In this document: piece after piece, positions 11,107-31,574 of the stretch | Numbering within the stretch: position 1 is the first letter of the stretch | How the letters are laid out: every line of letters begins with the position of its first letter | Source: a virus | Lineage: Duplodnaviria; Heunggongvirae; Uroviricota; Caudoviricetes | DNA: 37,915 nucleotides | IMG/VR virus record: IMGVR_UViG_2778261269_000005 | Span: 1-37,915 of that record | Strand: one strand, 5' to 3' | Notes under the pieces: generated by a model | The model's database searches: none | What the model was told of the DNA's origin: nothing | Seen by the model: the letters and a program-made list of their open reading frames with translations, nothing else | Program-made: the position numbers and the translations under genes

Positions 11107-12723
11107 TTACGGCATACTCATCAGCAGTTCTTCTTCCCCGTTCCCGGCAGTTCCGCCACCGGAAACGGCACTGGCGGCATGCTGTGCCATGAAGCGCTCA
11201 AAAAGTGTTACCTGTGACGGTTGCGATACTGATGGCGCAGCTGCCAGCAGCGTTTTCGCCTGCTCCACTGTCATTCCAGGTTGTTCAGCCAGCGCCTGTG
11301 CCAGTTTTTCGCGTCCTTTTGCTTCCGGCAACGCAATAATTTGATCGCCGGTACTTGCCGTACCGGTTGCCGGTGCCGCTACCAGTAGCATTTTCGCCTG
11401 TTCCACCGTCATTCCCGGCTGTTCAGCCAGCGCCTGTGCGAGTTGTTCACGCCCTTTTGCTTCCGGAAGTGCCATAATCTGCTCGCCGGTACTTGCCGCA
11501 CCGGAAACCGGTGCCGCTGCCAGTAACGTTTTCGCCTGCTCCACCGTCATTCCCGGCTGTTCAGCCAGCGTCCGTGCCAGTTGTTCACGCCCTTTTGCTT
11601 CCAGAAGTGCCATAATCTGATCGCCTGTGCTGTCAGTACCGGCAACCGGTGCTGCCGCCAGTAATGTTTTTGCCTGCTCAACTGACATTCCCTGCTGACC
11701 TGCCAGCATCTGCGCCAGTTTTTCGCGTCCTTTCGCCTCCTGACAATTCAGGATCCCCATCACGCGCTGATTTTCCTGGGACACCGCTTCAGCAACGGTG
11801 AGATTTTTTGTTGTCATCGTATTCTCCTGTGTAACAGAGTCGTTCAGAGCAGAAACCATTACATCAACGGCATCTGCAGCATTAATCAGTTGATCAGCCA
11901 GGCCTATATCAATGCCTGCCTGACCGTCATAAACGGTAGCCTCGGTATTCATCACCGCCTCTGAACTCAGCCCCGTATAAAGCGCCACCTTGTCGACAAA
12001 CATCCGGCGGGCCTCATCAATACGGCGCTGAAAATCCGCACGCACACCTGTCGGCAACGCCTGAATACTGTTGCCGTCAACCTTGTGCTGCCCGGAGTAA
12101 ATCAGCGTGATATCCACGCCTTCCTGTGCCAGTTGTTTCTCGTAACTGGTGTGCGCCATCATCACACCAATCGAACCAATTTTTGCCGTCTGCGTGACCA
12201 GCCGACGCGTACAGGCCGCCGCCAGCAACATGGCGGCTGAACAGGCCATGTCATTACACAGCGCCCACACGGGCTTCTGTTCCCGCAGACGGTAAATCAT
12301 GTCAGCACAGTCAAACGCCCCGGCAGCCTGACCACCCGGACTGTCGATATCCAGTAAAATGCCGCGTACATCCGGGTCGTTCACCGCTGACTTAAGACGG
12401 GCAGTCAGACCGTCATAACCGGTCATACCGGAATATGGCCGCAGGGTACCCATTTTATGTACCAACGTGCCGCTCACCGGCAGAATGGCAATACCATTTT
12501 TCACCTGGTAACTCTTTACCGGACGCGGACCACCAGTCATATAATCGGTAACCGCCAGCTGCATACCATCGGCATCAAGCTGAACGGCCTGCTGCGGAAC
12601 GGCAAGGTTGCCCGCCCCCATCTCCTTACCCAGTGCGCAAAAGAAAACCCGCGCATAGGCGGGTTCCAGTAAAAGCGGCTCATTAAATGCCATCGCGGCA
12701 ATATGTGATAAATTACAGCGCAT
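11107..12723 (-). CDS. C: prohead protease / scaffold (S49 peptidase, C/Nu3-type) with internal tandem repeats
   Basis: 538-aa ORF; N-terminus MRCNLSHIAAMAFNEPLLLEPAYARVFFCAL is lambda C-like; S49 peptidase region; C-terminal part holds repeated 46-aa units. Confidence 0.85.
   Translation of the reverse strand: MRCNLSHIAAMAFNEPLLLEPAYARVFFCALGKEMGAGNLAVPQQAVQLDADGMQLAVTDYMTGGPRPVKSYQVKNGIAILPVSGTLVHKMGTLRPYSGMTGYDGLTARLKSAVNDPDVRGILLDIDSPGGQAAGAFDCADMIYRLREQKPVWALCNDMACSAAMLLAAACTRRLVTQTAKIGSIGVMMAHTSYEKQLAQEGVDITLIYSGQHKVDGNSIQALPTGVRADFQRRIDEARRMFVDKVALYTGLSSEAVMNTEATVYDGQAGIDIGLADQLINAADAVDVMVSALNDSVTQENTMTTKNLTVAEAVSQENQRVMGILNCQEAKGREKLAQMLAGQQGMSVEQAKTLLAAAPVAGTDSTGDQIMALLEAKGREQLARTLAEQPGMTVEQAKTLLAAAPVSGAASTGEQIMALPEAKGREQLAQALAEQPGMTVEQAKMLLVAAPATGTASTGDQIIALPEAKGREKLAQALAEQPGMTVEQAKTLLAAAPSVSQPSQVTLFERFMAQHAASAVSGGGTAGNGEEELLMSMP
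11233..11739 (-). repeat. about 3.7 in-frame tandem copies of a 138-bp unit inside the protease/scaffold gene
   Basis: TTTTCGCC(TG) recurs at 11253, 11391, 11529 and about 11667 (period 138); protein shows repeated AKGRE(K/Q)LA...GMTVEQAKTLLAAAP...STG(D/E)QI(M/I)AL(L/P)E units. Confidence 0.8.
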
Positions 12724-27349: not shown

Positions 27350-27629
27350 GTAGTGCGCGCTCTAAATCAGCCAGATAAATCCAGCTGCCATTTTCCTTAG
27401 GTATCATGACATGGCGCTCATCAGCATTTATCGGGTGTCCATATCGAAGTTCATAGCCAGCCGGTAGCTGGACTTCCCTTGCCTCCAGTTCTGCAATGCG
27501 CTTGTCTTTGGCTTCCAGTTCATCAAGAACCTTTTTGATGGCTGGTGAATGTGTCGTATAACTCGCAGCCGGACCGGCAAGCATTATCCTGAGCTGCGTT
27601 TTCGCTTTTTCCGTGTTCATTTGGTTCAT
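27318..27629 (-). CDS. hypothetical protein
   Basis: 103-aa ORF in the early-right operon. Confidence 0.4.
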   Translation of the reverse strand: MNQMNTEKAKTQLRIMLAGPAASYTTHSPAIKKVLDELEAKDKRIAELEAREVQLPAGYELRYGHPINADERHVMIPKENGSWIYLADLERALRVAGIRIKGE

Positions 27630-27644
27630 TACCTTATTTAGTGG

Positions 27645-28064
27645 CTATATTCCCCAATAGAACGTTAGTATACGCTGCATAACTTCGCTTTCCCGGCACT
27701 CACGGCAAATCATGTTCTGACGCCTGTCGTAACGACGTATTTCTCCATCAGGTAATGACCAGATAAGGTCCGGATCAACCGCAGATGGTTTCTTCAGCTT
27801 TGCCCTTGAGAGCTTTTTACGGGCATTTTGCCAATCCTTACGCGCCTGTTCAGACGGGAATAACCCGTAACCAGAGTTGTATACATCGCCACTGGCAACC
27901 AGCTCTCTGGCCAGAACGCTCATCAGATATCTTGTTGCCCCAGTTTTAGCTTCCAGTTGTCGTAACGTCTCGCGTCCACTCTGGCGTACGAGTTCAACAA
28001 CCAGCCCTTTAATTTTTTCCCGCTCTTCCTGTGTAAATACTTTTGCCATAAGCGCCTCCGGCAA
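27645..28064 (-). CDS. hypothetical protein (replication/nin region)
   Basis: 139-aa ORF; ATGA-type junction with the upstream gene. Confidence 0.4.
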   Translation of the reverse strand: MPEALMAKVFTQEEREKIKGLVVELVRQSGRETLRQLEAKTGATRYLMSVLARELVASGDVYNSGYGLFPSEQARKDWQNARKKLSRAKLKKPSAVDPDLIWSLPDGEIRRYDRRQNMICRECRESEVMQRILTFYWGI

Positions 28065-28859
28065 TCACTTTTCCGATACAACACGGCGGGAAGAATCAGT
28101 AATCTGTCGAACAATATCCCGGTGCTTGTTCAGCTCCCGCAGCGCGGCGCAGACTCGCTCCCACTTCTGGACATGATTTTTCGCCCGACGCAGTTCACGG
28201 TTTGCCATATGCAGCGATGGTAAAATCAGGTTATCCGCTTGCGTTTCAGTAAACGATGGCAACGACTGCACAATGTCCCCCACAGTATCTGTTTTAATTT
28301 CTTCCTGTGTTGCCGCTTCCTGTACTGGTAACGCAACACCGGCTGGCTGAGAAAAGGCTTTACCAGGTGTTTTCGCTACCGATACAACTTTCGGCTCTGC
28401 TGGTAAATTTTCCCCGGTTTCTTTTACCAGCATCCACTTACACCCCTTCCCCTGTCCCAGCTTAATCGCCATGCCATCGCGGCAAAGCTTTTCCATCGCA
28501 GAAACCAGCGACCTGACGCAATCAGCACGCCCCACAGCAATTGCAATCTCAGCGGTGGTCATTGCCCCACCATGAACAAGTGTGGACAGGATGTCGCAGC
28601 GTTTCAGTGGCTCACGCTCTTTTCTGCTGACCACCGGATAGGATTTTCTTTCCACTTTACACACCGTTACTTTTTTTTCTTTCACGCCCGTTTGTCGTTC
28701 TGAAACAGACCAGTAACCATTAACCGACACAACTTCTCCCAGCTCTTCGTACTCCCTCAGCATTTTAATCGCCTCTGCAGGTTCAATGCCCAAACTGGCA
28801 GCAAGCTCGGTGCACGTCACCTTTTGCATCGCTTTTAACGTATCAATCAACGTTTCCAT
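28065..28859 (-). CDS. hypothetical protein with winged-helix-like segments, in the lambda P-equivalent position
   Basis: Start set at ATG 28859 (GGGAGA RBS); no Walker A motif seen, so probably not a DnaC-type loader. Confidence 0.45.
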   Translation of the reverse strand: METLIDTLKAMQKVTCTELAASLGIEPAEAIKMLREYEELGEVVSVNGYWSVSERQTGVKEKKVTVCKVERKSYPVVSRKEREPLKRCDILSTLVHGGAMTTAEIAIAVGRADCVRSLVSAMEKLCRDGMAIKLGQGKGCKWMLVKETGENLPAEPKVVSVAKTPGKAFSQPAGVALPVQEAATQEEIKTDTVGDIVQSLPSFTETQADNLILPSLHMANRELRRAKNHVQKWERVCAALRELNKHRDIVRQITDSSRRVVSEK

Positions 28860-28903
28860 CAAAATTTCTCCCGTTAAAATCATTTACCAATCTCAAACCA
28901 AAC

Positions 28904-29866
28904 TTATCCCCTGAACCCTGGCGGAATTTCGGTGTCCGGTTCAGAAATGTGATTCACACAACGCTGTACAGGCGAACGTCCCAGACGAATAACCAGCTCA
29001 TCCCATTTTTCGCGAAGCTTTGACGGGCTCATGACGTTTTTTACCCAGAATGGATCCCGTTGTACCCGACTGAACATTTCGCAAATTTGCCTGTGAGTTC
29101 TGCCATCCAGCATCCGCATTGTGCGCACGTCATTGGCCCATGCGGTCCAGTTGGGTTCTTTCGGTCGCGTAATCTCGCCATCATCGCTGGCAGCCTGTTC
29201 GTAAAGACTCACGATTCGCCACCAGATCCACTGCGCACACGTCAAATCTTCCTGAGTTCCCCACTGGCGTTTTTTCACACTGAACACAACCGCATCAGGA
29301 TGACGGGTTAAAAACGCCTGTTCAGCTGTCTTCTCGTCCGGTTGCGAAGTTTCCGGACAAGAAGATCTTTTATCTGACGGATCAGGTTTTAATACTGACG
29401 GATCGGGGCCAACCATCGCCCCCCTAACCGGCTGTTTTTTATCAACGGTTGATCCATCAGAATTTGACGGGTCAACCGTTGAGGGGTCAATATTTGACGG
29501 GTCAACGGTTAGCGGGTCATTTTTTGCCGGGTTAATTTTTCTTTTCGGTTTATATGCCTCACGCGCCGCCGCTGCTGCTGCTTCGAGTTTTTCCACATTA
29601 AGACGGTAGATATTGCTTTCATTACGCCCACCGACCTTACGTTCCTCCTTCGTCAGCCAGCCGTTCTTTTCCAGTTCAGCTATCGCAGCTTTAACCGTTG
29701 ATTCACTCTTTGCCCCAATCTGACGACGAATGGTCTCCACTGCAGGCCATGACACACCTTCGTCATTGCTGTAGTCTGCAAGGCGAGCCATTACTGCCAC
29801 TCTGGATAAGATCATGCCTGTGAAGGCACACCCTTCCCAGACAAGACCATGAAGCTTACTGCTCAT
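28904..29866 (-). CDS. replication initiator (lambda O-like; wHTH N-terminus, iteron-encoded repeats)
   Basis: 320-aa ORF; wHTH-like N-terminus (STVKAAIAELEKNGWLTKEER); internal VDPSNIDPSTVDPSNSDGSTVD repeats coincide with DNA iterons. Confidence 0.65.
   Translation of the reverse strand: MSSKLHGLVWEGCAFTGMILSRVAVMARLADYSNDEGVSWPAVETIRRQIGAKSESTVKAAIAELEKNGWLTKEERKVGGRNESNIYRLNVEKLEAAAAAAREAYKPKRKINPAKNDPLTVDPSNIDPSTVDPSNSDGSTVDKKQPVRGAMVGPDPSVLKPDPSDKRSSCPETSQPDEKTAEQAFLTRHPDAVVFSVKKRQWGTQEDLTCAQWIWWRIVSLYEQAASDDGEITRPKEPNWTAWANDVRTMRMLDGRTHRQICEMFSRVQRDPFWVKNVMSPSKLREKWDELVIRLGRSPVQRCVNHISEPDTEIPPGFRG
29466..29537. repeat. replication origin iterons (five GGGTCAA-type repeats at 15-bp spacing) plus adjacent AT-rich tract
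   Basis: GGGTCAA/GGGTCAT/GGGTTAA at 29469, 29484, 29499, 29514, 29529, followed by TTTTTGCCGGGTTAATTTTTCTTTTCGGTTTATAT. Confidence 0.6.
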
Positions 29867-29889
29867 AAAAAACCCCGAACACCGTGCTT

Positions 29890-30315
29890 TTAGTGCATCA
29901 CCACGGCATTTCCCGCCGGGCCACCACGATTCATCTGATTGAAGCCAGCGATCGCCACTGCGACAAAATCATCGGCGTCTCTCACCAGCCGTTCCCGCGA
30001 CTCCACCAGCTCCCGAAACCAGGCTGAACTGTGACTGCGCATTCGGGCCACCAGCAGAGGCGGCATTGCCTTTTCGATCGCAGGCAACAACGCCTGAATT
30101 TTTTTAACCGCATCAGGAGTGTCTTTCTCCACCCAGCGGAAAATTTTCTGGGTATTGCGAGCCAGGGCTTCTGGGTGTGAATCGTCATACAGTTCCGGAA
30201 ACGTCATACCCAGTTCAAAATAAGCCCGGGTTATTTCAGCTGCCGGAACTTTTTCGCCGTCCGGATGCGCCCAGGCATTCATCGCCATGCGGATGTGCTC
30301 ATGCTTGATTTTCAT
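29890..30315 (-). CDS. YdaT-like protein (CII-position early regulator)
   Basis: 141-aa ORF beginning MKIKHEHI, directly after the Cro-like gene (ATGA overlap). Confidence 0.5.
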   Translation of the reverse strand: MKIKHEHIRMAMNAWAHPDGEKVPAAEITRAYFELGMTFPELYDDSHPEALARNTQKIFRWVEKDTPDAVKKIQALLPAIEKAMPPLLVARMRSHSSAWFRELVESRERLVRDADDFVAVAIAGFNQMNRGGPAGNAVVMH

Positions 30316-30614
30316 GAATCAACTCCATCAGATAAGCATGCACTACAATCACCTTCAGCATGAACTACATGTGTTTGCCCCAAACGAATGCCGCTCGCAT
30401 ACTCAGGCCAAATAAGCTCCCAATCATGGGGTCGTAGCTCCGCCCTACTTACTTGGCCTTCCGTCGCAGATTCGATCATAAGGGCGCGGGTTGGAGATAT
30501 AGCTGCTCGTCCAGACGCCATTTGCGATAAGTAAGATGGCGATACACCAAGTCTGGCCGCGAATTTCTTAGCATCACCAACCCTCAATGATTTAATAAAC
30601 TCTTTTAATGTCAT
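30312..30614 (-). CDS. Cro-like HTH regulator (YdaS-type)
   Basis: 100-aa ORF; FAARLGVSPSYLSQMASGRAAISPTRA HTH; divergent from the repressor across an operator-rich intergenic region. Confidence 0.7.
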   Translation of the reverse strand: MTLKEFIKSLRVGDAKKFAARLGVSPSYLSQMASGRAAISPTRALMIESATEGQVSRAELRPHDWELIWPEYASGIRLGQTHVVHAEGDCSACLSDGVDS

Positions 30615-30620
30615 ACCTTC

Positions 30621-30705
30621 CTCGGTTTAGTGTTTTTTTCGAGTTTAGTGTTTAATAAACCATTAAGTCAAGTATTTGCTTATTTAGTGATTACTAAAGA
30701 TAATT
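30621..30705. promoter_or_regulatory. OR-like operator/promoter region between Cro-like gene and repressor
   Basis: GTTTAGTGTTT at 30625-30635 and 30643-30653, TATTTAGTGA at 30681-30690, TTAAGTCAAGTA at 30663-30674; TTGACT and TTGCTT-17-GATAAT promoter-like hexamers. Confidence 0.5.
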
Positions 30706-30710
30706 ACCAC

Positions 30711-31082
30711 ATGCAAAAAAAAGAAATTCGCCGTTTACGTCTCAAGGAGTGGTTTAAAGATAAAACTCTGCCACCCAAAGAGAAGAGCTACCTATCTCAA
30801 CTAATGAGTGGGAGGGCCTCGTTTGGAGAAAAGGCTGCCAGAAGAATAGAGCAAACATACGGGATGCCGGAAGGGTATCTGGATGCGGAATACGCAGAAC
30901 AACCGGAAGTTTCTCCACCACATGTAGGGTTAACGTCTAATCAACTGGAATTATTGCAGATTTTTTCAGCCTTCCCTGAGGATGAGCAACGCCAGATAAT
31001 CAGCGAGTTAAAGCAGAAAAAAGAATCAATGGAAGATCTCATAGCGAGATGGATTGCGGCGCAAAAATGCCGCCGCGCCTGA
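30711..31082 (+). CDS. prophage repressor, XRE-family HTH without S24 peptidase domain (CI analogue)
   Basis: Start set at ATG 30711 (123 aa): MQKKEIRRLRLKEWFKDKTLPPKEKSYLSQLMSGRASFGEKAARRIEQTYGMPEGYLD; almost no leader after the -10-like GATAAT. Confidence 0.65.
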   Translation: MQKKEIRRLRLKEWFKDKTLPPKEKSYLSQLMSGRASFGEKAARRIEQTYGMPEGYLDAEYAEQPEVSPPHVGLTSNQLELLQIFSAFPEDEQRQIISELKQKKESMEDLIARWIAAQKCRRA

Positions 31083-31102
31083 GTTATAAAACCGGAGGAA
31101 AC

Positions 31103-31294
31103 ATGAATAGAGCCCTTTCACCAATGGTTTCTGAATTTGAAACCATTGAACAAGAAAACAGTTACAACGAATGGCTGCGTGCGAAAGTAGCAACGAGCCT
31201 TGCAGATCCGCGCCCAGCAATTCCCCATGACGAAGTTGAGCGCAGAATGGCAGAACGCTTTGCTAAAATGCGCAAGGAACGGAGCAAGCAGTAA
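31103..31294 (+). CDS. putative type II antitoxin
   Basis: Start set at ATG 31103 (GGAGG RBS), 63 aa; stop 1 nt before the toxin start. Confidence 0.55.
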   Translation: MNRALSPMVSEFETIEQENSYNEWLRAKVATSLADPRPAIPHDEVERRMAERFAKMRKERSKQ

Positions 31295-31295
31295 A

Positions 31296-31574
31296 ATGTT
31301 ACCCGTGTTATGGCTTGAAAGCGCAGATACCGACCTAGATGATATAACTAGTTATATTGCTCGTTTCGACATAGATGCGGCTGAACGCTTATGGCAGCGA
31401 TTAAGGGGTTGTGTGCTGCCGTTATCCGAACATCCGTATTTATACCCACCAAGCGACAGAGTACCTGGCTTGCGTGAGATTGTAGCCCACCCTAACTATA
31501 TAATTCTATACCGCGTAACAACATCAAGCGTTGAAGTAGTAAACGTGATCCACACAAGACGCCAGTTTCCCTAA
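31296..31574 (+). CDS. RelE/ParE-superfamily toxin
   Basis: Start set at ATG 31296 (92 aa): ...LREIVAHPNYIILYRVTTSSVEVVNVIHTRRQFP is RelE/ParE-like. Confidence 0.65.
   Translation: MLPVLWLESADTDLDDITSYIARFDIDAAERLWQRLRGCVLPLSEHPYLYPPSDRVPGLREIVAHPNYIILYRVTTSSVEVVNVIHTRRQFP

Follow-up and report, generated by a model that had tools for sequence, protein, structure and literature searches.

In phage lambda, the replication origin lies in gene O and comprises four 18-19-bp iterons, an AT-rich tract and, to the right of that tract, a dyad; the O protein itself joins an N-terminal ori-binding domain to a C-terminal domain that binds P. The iterons of plasmids measure 17-22 bp, follow one another at intervals of about two helical turns and sit outside the rep coding sequence. 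At P1 oriR and at oriC there is an adjacent AT-rich region with Dam sites, and P1 uses a winged-helix Rep with directly repeated sites. The O gene of 933W-type Stx phages contains six iterons (PMC7466680), and PMC6022878 describes in-frame ori deletions in lambda. Nothing is known, according to PMC8951638, about the replication proteins of the non-lambdoid 'Eru' Stx phages.

We analysed a stretch of 37,915 nt, referred to throughout as the window, and identified in it a segment that probably serves a lambdoid (CP-933P/Sp12-like) prophage as its cis-acting replication origin and that lies inside the prophage's own initiator gene. Judged from sequence, its design is very probably that of lambda, with a different DNA-binding domain and with different, more closely packed candidate sites. 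No prior description of this origin appeared in the literature searched, which covered few subscription-journal papers, and an earlier mention is possible.

The gene concerned (28904-29866, minus strand) encodes an O-like replication initiator of 320 amino acids (phrog_391, 'replication initiation O-like', E = 8e-113). Residues 25-71 match PF13730 (HTH_36) with E = 6e-8; in the same scan, lambda O scored 5.7e-36 on PF04492. That family, which represents the N-terminal ori-binding domain of lambda O, had no match in the initiator protein even at E <= 1, and the Pfam scan found no Rep_3-type domain. In an AF2 model, residues 1-104 (encoded at 29555-29866, minus strand) form a winged-helix DNA-binding domain, presumed to be the iteron reader, with helices at 3-15, 20-31, 43-50 and 55-67, a beta-hairpin at 71-89 and a helix at 91-104 (pLDDT 70-88). 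A Foldseek search for a specific initiator fold returned only weak matches (E >= 5e-3) to generic MarR/PadR/PerR winged helices. A linker predicted to be disordered (residues 109-178, pLDDT < 50) separates this domain from a helical C-terminal domain (residues 190-293, encoded at 28988-29299, minus strand; pLDDT 70-83) that is 43% identical to residues 179-270 of lambda O (BLASTP, E = 5e-25). The protein ends in a tail, VNHISEPDTEIPPGFRG (28907-28957, minus strand), that is almost the same as the C terminus of host DnaT: with a query of 33 amino acids, phmmer matched the PDB entries 2ru8, 6aep and 9zbt_D (DnaT 160-179, ...VNTVSEPDSQIPPGFRG) at E values of 2e-4 to 5e-4. YdaU of the Rac prophage, a DUF1376 protein belonging to a different family, was rejected as a relative.

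The surrounding genes run in the order CI-like (30630-31082, plus strand), YdaS/Cro-like (30312-30614, minus strand), YdaT/CII-like (29890-30315, minus strand) and O-like, such that the initiator gene holds the rightward-operon position after the Cro-like and CII-like genes. These assignments are supported by PMC8630535, in which the equivalent CP-933P gene is termed an o homologue. On its 3' side, the initiator gene is followed by DUF1627 (28065-28883) and then DUF977/Ren-like (27645-28064), and neither domain nor phrog annotation identified a P-type or DnaC-type helicase-loader gene directly downstream. In SfIV, the genes that come after gp41 are PerC-like.

Within the linker-coding region, repeat finding, TRF, translation and lag-15 statistics together delineated an array of six contiguous 15-bp units (29447-29536). 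Five of these, read on the plus strand, are TGACGGGTCAA (29465), TGAGGGGTCAA (29480), TGACGGGTCAA (29495), TAGCGGGTCAT (29510) and TGCCGGGTTAA (29525), in exact 15-bp steps; three are strong and two degenerate. The sixth (29447-29461, TGATCCATCAGA) precedes the start of the array given in the initial annotation and has a centre of the reverse-orientation type. On the coding strand, the units read ATTAACCCGGCAAAA, AATGACCCGCTAACC, GTTGACCCGTCAAAT, ATTGACCCCTCAACG, GTTGACCCGTCAAAT and TCTGATGGATCAACC. The core of the unit is a 12-bp near-palindrome, TTGACCCGTCAA (TTGAC-CC-GTCAA), and the recognition unit can be read either as TTGAC-NN-GTCAA (12 bp) or as an interleaved TCAAC-N-GTTGA (11 bp), both of which are palindromic in the array. 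The period of 15 bp corresponds to about 1.4 helical turns, with a super-period of 30 bp, and TRF reported both (period 15, 3.7 copies; period 30, 2.4 copies with 85% matches). Self-identity at lag 15 over the 90 bp from 29449 was 0.65, the highest among 37,825 windows of the stretch (mean 0.27, s.d. 0.058), and reached 0.73 at lag 30. The initial annotation had thus been right that GGGTCAA-type repeats recur at exact 15-bp intervals (29469-29535), that they fall within the coding sequence of an O-like initiator and that they are mirrored by a DPS pentapeptide, as the units encode x-D-P-S-x; the full peptide (residues 111-140) reads INPAK NDPLT VDPSN IDPST VDPSN SDGST. The units are more alike as DNA than this peptide repeat demands, because 38 lag-15 matches were observed compared with 29.8 +/- 2.9 under synonymous-codon resampling (P = 0.0036).

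The flanks of the array carry further features. The initial annotation had placed an AT-rich tract after the repeats, and a T-skewed tract encoding the basic stretch YKPKRKINPAKN does exist there (29516-29559; GC content of 32.5% at 29520-29559). It is, however, only moderately AT-rich (97th percentile of duplex instability), lies, relative to the direction of the gene, on the upstream side of the array and is not conserved, with AT fractions at equivalent offsets in relatives averaging about 0.50-0.52 (s.d. 0.08-0.10). The conserved tract is on the opposite side. The stretch bordering the array (GTTGATAAAAAACAG CCGGTTAGGGGGGCG ATGGTTGGCCCCGAT; 29402-29446) combines a G+C-rich clamp with degenerate iteron-like units; at the same place, the Erwinia and Edwardsiella relatives have an inverted pair that is intact, TTAAGGGGTCAA-TGG-TTGACCCC. 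The family AT profile has its minimum at this clamp, immediately ahead of the anchor (0.40, s.d. 0.04), and then rises to 0.68 (s.d. 0.04) at +10 to +40 past the anchor in 50 of 50 homologues. This AT-rich tract (about 29357-29407; coding strand CCCGATCCGTCAGTATTAAAACCTGATCCGTCAGATAAAAGATCT), downstream of the array in the direction of transcription and in the 92nd-94th percentile of instability, is the leading candidate unwinding element, although both AT-rich tracts are only moderately unstable and the site is not assignable from sequence. Beyond it, at the junction with the C-terminal module, is an inverted repeat (TCTTCTCGTCCGG / CCGGACAAGAAGA; 29329-29365) with 13-nt arms and an 11-nt gap, the core of which, GTCCGG-N11-CCGGAC, recurs in several homologues.

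GATC sites occur in the conserved tract at 29364, 29380 and 29401, the conserved pair being GATCCGTCAG. Across the family, all 79 D-P dipeptides of the array have GAC as the Asp codon, whereas 99 of 110 immediately beyond the array have GAT, a choice that results in conserved GATC sites; their density is 2.4 per 100 bp in the conserved AT-rich tract compared with 0.32 elsewhere. It is this family-wide codon test that carries the GATC argument, because clustering in the window (4 sites in 91 bp compared with an overall 1 per 311 bp) is suggestive, yet weak once multiple testing is taken into account. DnaA boxes were left out of the argument, as the 84 in the window do not exceed chance (73.6 +/- 8.7), even though exact TTWTNCACA matches lie nearby at 29271 and 29589.

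An array bound by the initiator could also act as a control element, through titration, handcuffing, incompatibility or an autoregulatory roadblock, with the true origin elsewhere. Copy control is the role of plasmid iteron arrays like those of P1 incA and F incC, and neither AT-rich tract is extreme. We nevertheless consider this unlikely. In the window, the motif is restricted to the initiator gene, and there is no second cluster there or in 277 kb of flanks from 57 loci; in those flanks, it matched once compared with 163 matches in the linker zones (about 3,300-fold enrichment in linkers). Moreover, the conserved G+C clamp, the GATC-bearing AT-rich tract and the dyad beside the array resemble the anatomy of an origin, and the order of DNA-binding domain, iterons, AT-rich tract, dyad and C-terminal domain is collinear with that of lambda, whose annotated iterons are also recovered by the same repeat finder.

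A comparison across relatives bears on whether the repeats matter as DNA. A 15-bp array is found at the same place in at least 50 homologues across Enterobacterales, and 37 homologues from many genera give the unit consensus TCTGAC-nnn-TCAAAA. Serine at unit position 4 is encoded by TCA in 151 of 167 cases (90%), compared with 57 of 349 (16%) in the N-terminal domains of the same genes, and serine at position 1 by TCT in 118 of 137 cases compared with 27 of 349. The bias is strong (p about 1e-62, Fisher), although such p values are inflated, since neither the units of one gene nor the genes of different species are independent observations, and part of the codon uniformity could stem from concerted evolution of the tandem repeats. 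Lysine is encoded by AAA in 108 of 108 array cases and 131 of 219 in the comparison set. The central codon is the least conserved of the unit, changing non-synonymously among A, V, G, P and T. Within the subgroup of the window, TTGACCCCTCAA appears in one frame in either orientation (VDPS and VEGS) and once in another frame (LRGQ); the sites of group B in the family are TCTGACGCGTCAAAA.

These patterns weigh against a purely peptide-level explanation, by which a flexible Pro/Ser-rich linker has grown by slippage and the DNA periodicity is passive. The array does encode a disordered linker with its pentapeptide periodicity kept at the protein level, and E. coli alleles of 310, 315 or 320 amino acids differ in array copy number by in-frame steps of 15 or 30 bp. 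However, synonymous positions are fixed whereas the central codon is variable, reverse-complemented copies turn DPS into EGS with the DNA kept, the D-P codon changes from GAC to GAT at the edge of the array, and the substitutions DQS, APS, NPS and GPS are tolerated. We therefore regard that explanation as very unlikely, and selection on the repeats as DNA, beyond the peptide, is well supported by the codon and orientation analyses.

Few parts of the gene are less polymorphic among E. coli alleles than the array (pi of 0.025-0.038 compared with 0.12-0.15 in the winged-helix domain). Many of these alleles have mutated units or deletions of 15 or 30 bp, and the copy in the window may therefore come from a decaying prophage; family members are also present in the viable phages SfII, SfIV, phiP27, YeP1-3 and phiNP. 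The N-terminal domain and array occur together with at least four unrelated C-terminal domains. That the repeats are instead sites for another protein (YdaT, DUF977, DUF1627 or a host factor), a promoter array or an RNA element is barely credible: TTGAC resembles a -35 hexamer and adjacent genes encode DNA-binding proteins, but scans for sigma-70-like promoters and terminators in 29250-29950 and for Rfam families at gathering score in 27500-31500 were empty, the array co-segregates with the winged-helix domain across neighbourhoods in which downstream genes differ and DUF1627 can be absent (L002 and SfIV), and in mEp460 the array has been swapped together with the N-terminal domain.

If the segment is an origin, transcription from the Cro/CII-like (ydaS-ydaT) operon would both supply the O-like protein and run through the origin. 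The winged-helix domain would bind the near-palindromic 12-mers, probably as dimers, and as these lie head to tail every 15 bp, a nucleoprotein array would form over 29447-29536 and strain the downstream AT-rich tract, whose opening may be controlled by Dam methylation or SeqA acting at the GATC sites. The lambda-O-like C-terminal domain, perhaps with the DnaT-like tail, might then recruit the host helicase machinery, a step that is conjectural because a P-like loader gene is absent. Origin and gene can share the same sequence because the stretch encodes a disordered linker, and the x-D-P-S-x peptide would be largely a by-product of the DNA motif.

These features might together define an uncharacterized class of origin, in which a gap-free array coated by a winged-helix protein is coupled to Dam-gated opening and to loader-free helicase recruitment through the DnaT-like tail; we raise this tentatively and regard it as doubtful. 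Such a class would span Enterobacterales prophages and phages (SfII/SfIV, phiP27 and HTH_36 'Eru' Stx-phage types), with alternating half-sites at a 15-bp period, by which adjacent sites would come to face opposite sides of the helix; opening would be gated by a conserved pair of Dam sites, and a tail copied from host DnaT would recruit helicase without a phage loader. A DnaT-derived tail and the lack of a loader would in turn imply that replication starts through the PriA/PriB/DnaT restart machinery.

More broadly, our analysis provides a concrete candidate origin for a very common replication module: the gene has a match in 2,930 of 5,426 complete E. coli genomes (about half), and Shigella serotype-converting phages carry the module too, as do some Stx phages, which have been described as uncharacterized with respect to their replication. 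It also offers an unusually clean natural case of overlapping codes, in which a candidate binding-site array dictates the amino acids of a disordered linker, as shown by one 12-mer that is translated in two frames and in either orientation. In addition, the family alignment predicts a recognition sequence for each initiator subgroup, which offers a possible basis for typing prophage replication and incompatibility groups.

Compared with known systems, the locus is closest in plan to lambda ori: both place the origin in the linker-coding middle of an initiator gene in the rightward operon, both run from dyad-symmetric iterons through an AT-rich tract to a dyad along the direction of transcription, and their C-terminal domains are homologous. 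The in-frame changes in copy number seen here also parallel the in-frame ori deletions of lambda. The lambda-like arrangement proposed in the initial annotation holds for the linker location, the C-terminal domain and the family codon pattern, but not for the N terminus, which is PF13730 rather than PF04492, or for a following P gene. As also proposed there, iteron sequence and spacing depart from those of lambda, with 12-bp cores every 15 bp instead of 18-19-mers every 20-24 bp; the conserved GATC pair in the AT-rich tract and the DnaT-like C-terminal tail are further differences. With iteron plasmids and P1 oriR, the locus shares a winged-helix initiator, direct repeats and a neighbouring AT-rich region with GATC, but it differs in its lack of a Rep_3-type match, its 15-bp period and the position of the repeats within the ORF. 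With 933W-type Stx phages, it has in common a variant iteron number, a lambda-type ori inside O and an E. coli prophage context, although those phages have true lambda O/P with lambda-like iterons, and the DNA-binding domain and motif here are different. The O-like protein of mEp460 (LR597641, 'Primosomal protein I') has the same C-terminal domain, the same DnaT-like tail and repeats in its linker, with 87% nucleotide identity to 28904-29371 of the window, but combines these with another N-terminal domain, four to five other repeats (CATCnnGnCATTTTGACCnGATG) at 23-bp spacing and three 12-mers (TATTCTCTGTAG). The system in the window itself corresponds to the HTH_36/YdaT-type 'Eru' replication regions.

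The O-like gene (28904-29866, minus strand) is an ORF of 320 amino acids whose product matches PHROG 391 'replication initiation O-like' (E 8e-113). Pfam HTH_36 (PF13730) matches residues 25-71, and the lambda Phage_rep_O model (PF04492), which recovers lambda O itself at 5.7e-36, gave no match to the protein even at E ≤ 1. Because PF13730 replaces PF04492 while residues 190-293 align with lambda O residues 179-270 (43% identity, E 5e-25), the protein is a mosaic O, with a different DNA-binding domain ahead of a lambda-type C-terminal domain. AlphaFold, run on 35 homologues, modelled a winged helix (residues 1-104, pLDDT 70-88), a disordered region (residues 109-178, pLDDT < 50) and a helical C-terminal domain; Foldseek searches with the N-terminus returned only generic MarR/PadR/PerR-type winged helices (E ≥ 5e-3).

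The surroundings form a CP-933P/Sp12-type lambdoid region of immunity and replication genes, with a PaaR2-like repressor (30630-31082, plus strand) found with PaaA2/ParE2, the Cro-like YdaS (30312-30614, minus strand) and the CII-like YdaT (29890-30315, minus strand). The immunity region also includes a PaaA2-like gene (31049-31294) and a ParE/RelE-like gene ending at 31574, such that 30630-31574 forms a paaR2-paaA2-parE2-like three-gene toxin-antitoxin/repressor locus opposite ydaS-ydaT. CP-933P of E. coli O157:H7 has the same layout, including paaR2-paaA2-parE2, with a gene named o homologue (PMC8630535); that paper contains no origin analysis of it. The O-like gene is followed by DUF1627 (28065-28883; phrog_630, function unknown) and then DUF977 (27645-28064; phrog_142, 'Ren-like exclusion protein'). 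DUF1627 is facultative, as it is absent from the related E. coli prophage L002 and from phage SfIV. Elsewhere in the window, a tandem repeat at 11240-11740 (period 138 bp, 3.6 copies, 84% matches, TRF score 638) is probably an in-frame repeat of a structural gene.

Inside the O-like gene, the plus-strand motifs TGACGGGTCAA (29465), TGAGGGGTCAA (29480), TGACGGGTCAA (29495), TAGCGGGTCAT (29510) and TGCCGGGTTAA (29525) follow one another in steps of exactly 15 bp. Tandem Repeats Finder reported a period of 15 (3.7 copies) and a period of 30 (2.4 copies, 85% matches), and the 90-bp stretch from 29449 had the highest lag-15 self-identity of all 37,825 such windows (0.65; mean 0.27, sd 0.058), with 0.73 at lag 30. 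These results bear out the initial annotation of GGGTCAA-type repeats at 15-bp intervals in the initiator ORF, and its proposal that they are mirrored as DPS-type pentapeptides agrees with the in-frame translation of the coding-strand units, INPAK NDPLT VDPSN IDPST VDPSN SDGST (residues 111-140). Three units are strong (TTGACCCGTCAA, TTGACCCCTCAA and TTGACCCGTCAA on the coding strand), the two closest to the N-terminal side are degenerate, and an extra unit at 29447-29461 has the G-rich centre of the reverse-orientation type. The unit core is a near-palindrome, TTGAC..GTCAA.

Alignment of 50 genes on a conserved G-D-P-S-V anchor revealed a G+C-rich clamp (AT 0.40, sd 0.04) followed by a sharply conserved AT-rich stretch of ~45 bp (AT 0.68, sd 0.04). 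This stretch has two GATCCRTCAG boxes ~21-24 bp apart, and its GATC density is 2.4 per 100 bp compared with 0.32 elsewhere in the genes. In the window, the conserved tract lies at 29357-29407, with GATC at 29364, 29380 and 29401, and is followed by an inverted repeat with 13-nt arms (29329-29365). The order along transcription (DNA-binding domain, iterons, AT-rich tract, dyad, C-terminal domain) is the same as in lambda. The lambda-ori arrangement proposed in the initial annotation is supported by this order and by the C-terminal homology, and iteron motif and spacing differ from lambda as it claimed, but the conserved AT-rich tract flanks the array on the other side. An AT-rich tract does lie beside the array; the one originally singled out, 29516-29559, is upstream, encodes a basic stretch (KPKRK) and shows no conserved base composition among family members (AT about 0.50-0.52, sd 0.08-0.10, at the equivalent position). 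By 30-bp duplex free energy within the window, it ranks at the 97th percentile and 29357-29407 at the 92nd-94th, both only moderately unstable; conservation favours 29357-29407 as the putative unwinding site.

A short, conserved dyad, GTCCGG-N11-CCGGAC, marks the junction of the N-terminal and C-terminal modules (peptide ...SSCPxxSQPD...) in the window and homologous loci. Megablast similarity to mEp460-type genes stops at a mosaic breakpoint near 29371, with which this dyad coincides; the dyad may belong to the origin or mark a recombination joint. At two loci from Gilliamella of the bee gut (L135 and L136), TCTGACCNGTCA units are kept and an extremely AT-rich run, ATATATAAATAATAATATAAATAATAATAAATTA, comes right after GACCCCGATCC, which fits an unwinding element downstream of the array. 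The array could instead be a control element, with initiation elsewhere. We consider this unlikely, as no second cluster of the motif was found in the window, where it is confined to the O-like gene, or in the flanks of the family loci, and the conserved elements beside the array resemble an origin.

The O-like gene has a match in 2930 of 5426 complete E. coli genomes, full length in 1514. The closest, in strain BCE049 (99.3%), lacks exactly 30 bp (two units), and IMG/VR alleles encode 310, 315 or 320 residues, differing by whole units. The array has the lowest nucleotide diversity across 28 distinct full-length alleles (0.025-0.038; winged-helix coding part, 0.12-0.15), which is unexpected for a low-complexity linker if the protein alone mattered. 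Searching proteins and then scanning a single genome from each species gave 56 loci, in Erwinia, Mixta, Edwardsiella, Kosakonia, Enterobacter, Yersinia, Proteus, Providencia, Rosenbergiella, Tatumella, Gilliamella, Pectobacterium, Citrobacter and others, with 42-80% identity across their N-terminal domains. Every intact homologue has the 15-bp/pentapeptide array immediately after the winged helix. Family members occur in viable phages, including Shigella SfII and SfIV (the latter with five or six units at 15-bp spacing), phiP27, Yersinia YeP1-3, Citrobacter phiNP and several Klebsiella phages.

Four independent lines of sequence evidence point to selection acting on the DNA of the array. First, conservation tracks the DNA motif, not codon positions. 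In group B, the homologue subgroup with the unit consensus TCTGAC-nnn-TCAAAA (173 units, 36 genes), the third codon positions at 3, 12 and 15 rank with the best conserved (1.2-1.4 bits of information), and conservation is lowest over the whole central codon (0.4-0.6 bits), which varies non-synonymously (A, V, G, P, T). Second, the repeats keep to particular codons for residues whose coding varies freely in the rest of each gene: comparing repeats with N-terminal domains, Ser at unit position 4 is TCA in 151/167 versus 57/349 (Fisher p 3e-62), Ser at position 1 is TCT in 118/137 versus 27/349 (p 8e-65) and Lys at position 5 is AAA in 108/108 versus 131/219 (p 4e-19), these p-values being illustrative only, as non-independent units are treated as independent. 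Pairwise third-position identity over the first 30 codons is only 0.48, and synonymous sites are therefore well diverged outside the repeats. Third, a 12-mer DNA word is kept while the encoded peptide changes. The subgroup to which the window's gene belongs (Erwinia, Mixta, Edwardsiella, Kosakonia sacchari) has TTGACCCCTCAA in either orientation without a change of frame, GTT GAC CCC TCA A encoding VDPS and its reverse complement, GTT GAG GGG TCA A, encoding VEGS; the related locus L115 has one copy in another frame, encoding LRGQ. Fourth, D-P codons depend on location, with GAC in 79/79 inside the array, GAT in 99/110 in the next 25 residues and a 12:12 split elsewhere. A slippage repeat that matters only as peptide is contradicted by all four patterns and is very improbable. 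In the window's array, 38 lag-15 matches were observed versus 29.8 ± 2.9 with random synonymous codons for the same peptide (P = 0.0036), and across loci the motif has 163 matches in 240-bp linker zones versus one in 277 kb of flanks. If the units are origin iterons, the protein has a pentapeptide repeat because 15-bp packing imposes it.

The winged helix and array are found fused to four or more unrelated C-terminal domains (lambda-O type, PF09524, Salmonella/Citrobacter type and Pectobacterium type). In phage mEp460, another N-terminal domain precedes the C-terminal half found in the window's gene (87% nucleotide identity over 28904-29371). The O-like linker of mEp460_ev081 (L003:3465-3640) has repeats different from the window's, with CATCnnGnCATTTTGACCnGATG four or five times at intervals of 23 bp and three tandem 12-mers, TATTCTCTGTAG; these make up a candidate origin of its own. 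Hybrids of lambda, 434, phi80 and P22 exemplify the classical lambdoid rule whereby the N-terminal half of O and the accompanying iterons act as a single unit of specificity, and the module swaps in the window family and mEp460 appear to follow it. Sites for another, neighbour-encoded protein, a promoter array or an RNA element are scarcely credible, as the array accompanies the N-terminal domain through different neighbourhoods and no support was found for a promoter array, terminator or RNA element at the array.

Established here, at the level of sequence, are the anatomy of the locus, the DNA-level constraint, modular co-inheritance and C-terminal homology to lambda O. In the candidate origin, winged-helix dimers would bind the near-palindromic units, and the packed array, with its 15-bp period (~1.4 helical turns) and 30-bp super-period, would distort the DNA. 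The AT-rich tract with its GATC sites would open, possibly under modulation by Dam or SeqA, and the C-terminal domain would bring in the helicase, in a manner that is speculative. No P-type or DnaC-type gene was found beside the O-like gene, where DUF1627 and DUF977 lie instead. The last 17 residues of the protein (304-320; 28907-28957), VNHISEPDTEIPPGFRG, are almost the same as the C-terminus of host E. coli DnaT, VNTVSEPDSQIPPGFRG (PDB 2ru8, 6aep, 9zbt_D), for which a recent preprimosome structure paper gives no function. An IPxGFRG ending also closes four homologous proteins (P0044, P0070, P0031 and P0073) whose C-terminal domains are otherwise unrelated. The tail may mimic a host primosome protein, the module itself having no P-like loader.

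An origin within O is textbook lambda biology, and the repeat finder applied to the mEp460 and SfIV linkers recovered lambda's four annotated iterons as a positive control. Lambdoid phages, Stx phages among them (PMC7466680), are known to vary in their iterons, and the 'Eru' replication regions catalogued for Stx phages include ones with HTH_36 and YdaT (PMC8951638). The literature searched, mostly open-access, yielded no earlier description of the origin of this HTH_36-type initiator, although phage genome papers may mention it. Unlike lambda, the O-like locus has an HTH_36 DNA-binding domain, tighter, 15-bp iteron packing, a conserved Dam-site pair and no phage-encoded loader; the combination of these features with the lambda architecture appears to be what is new here.
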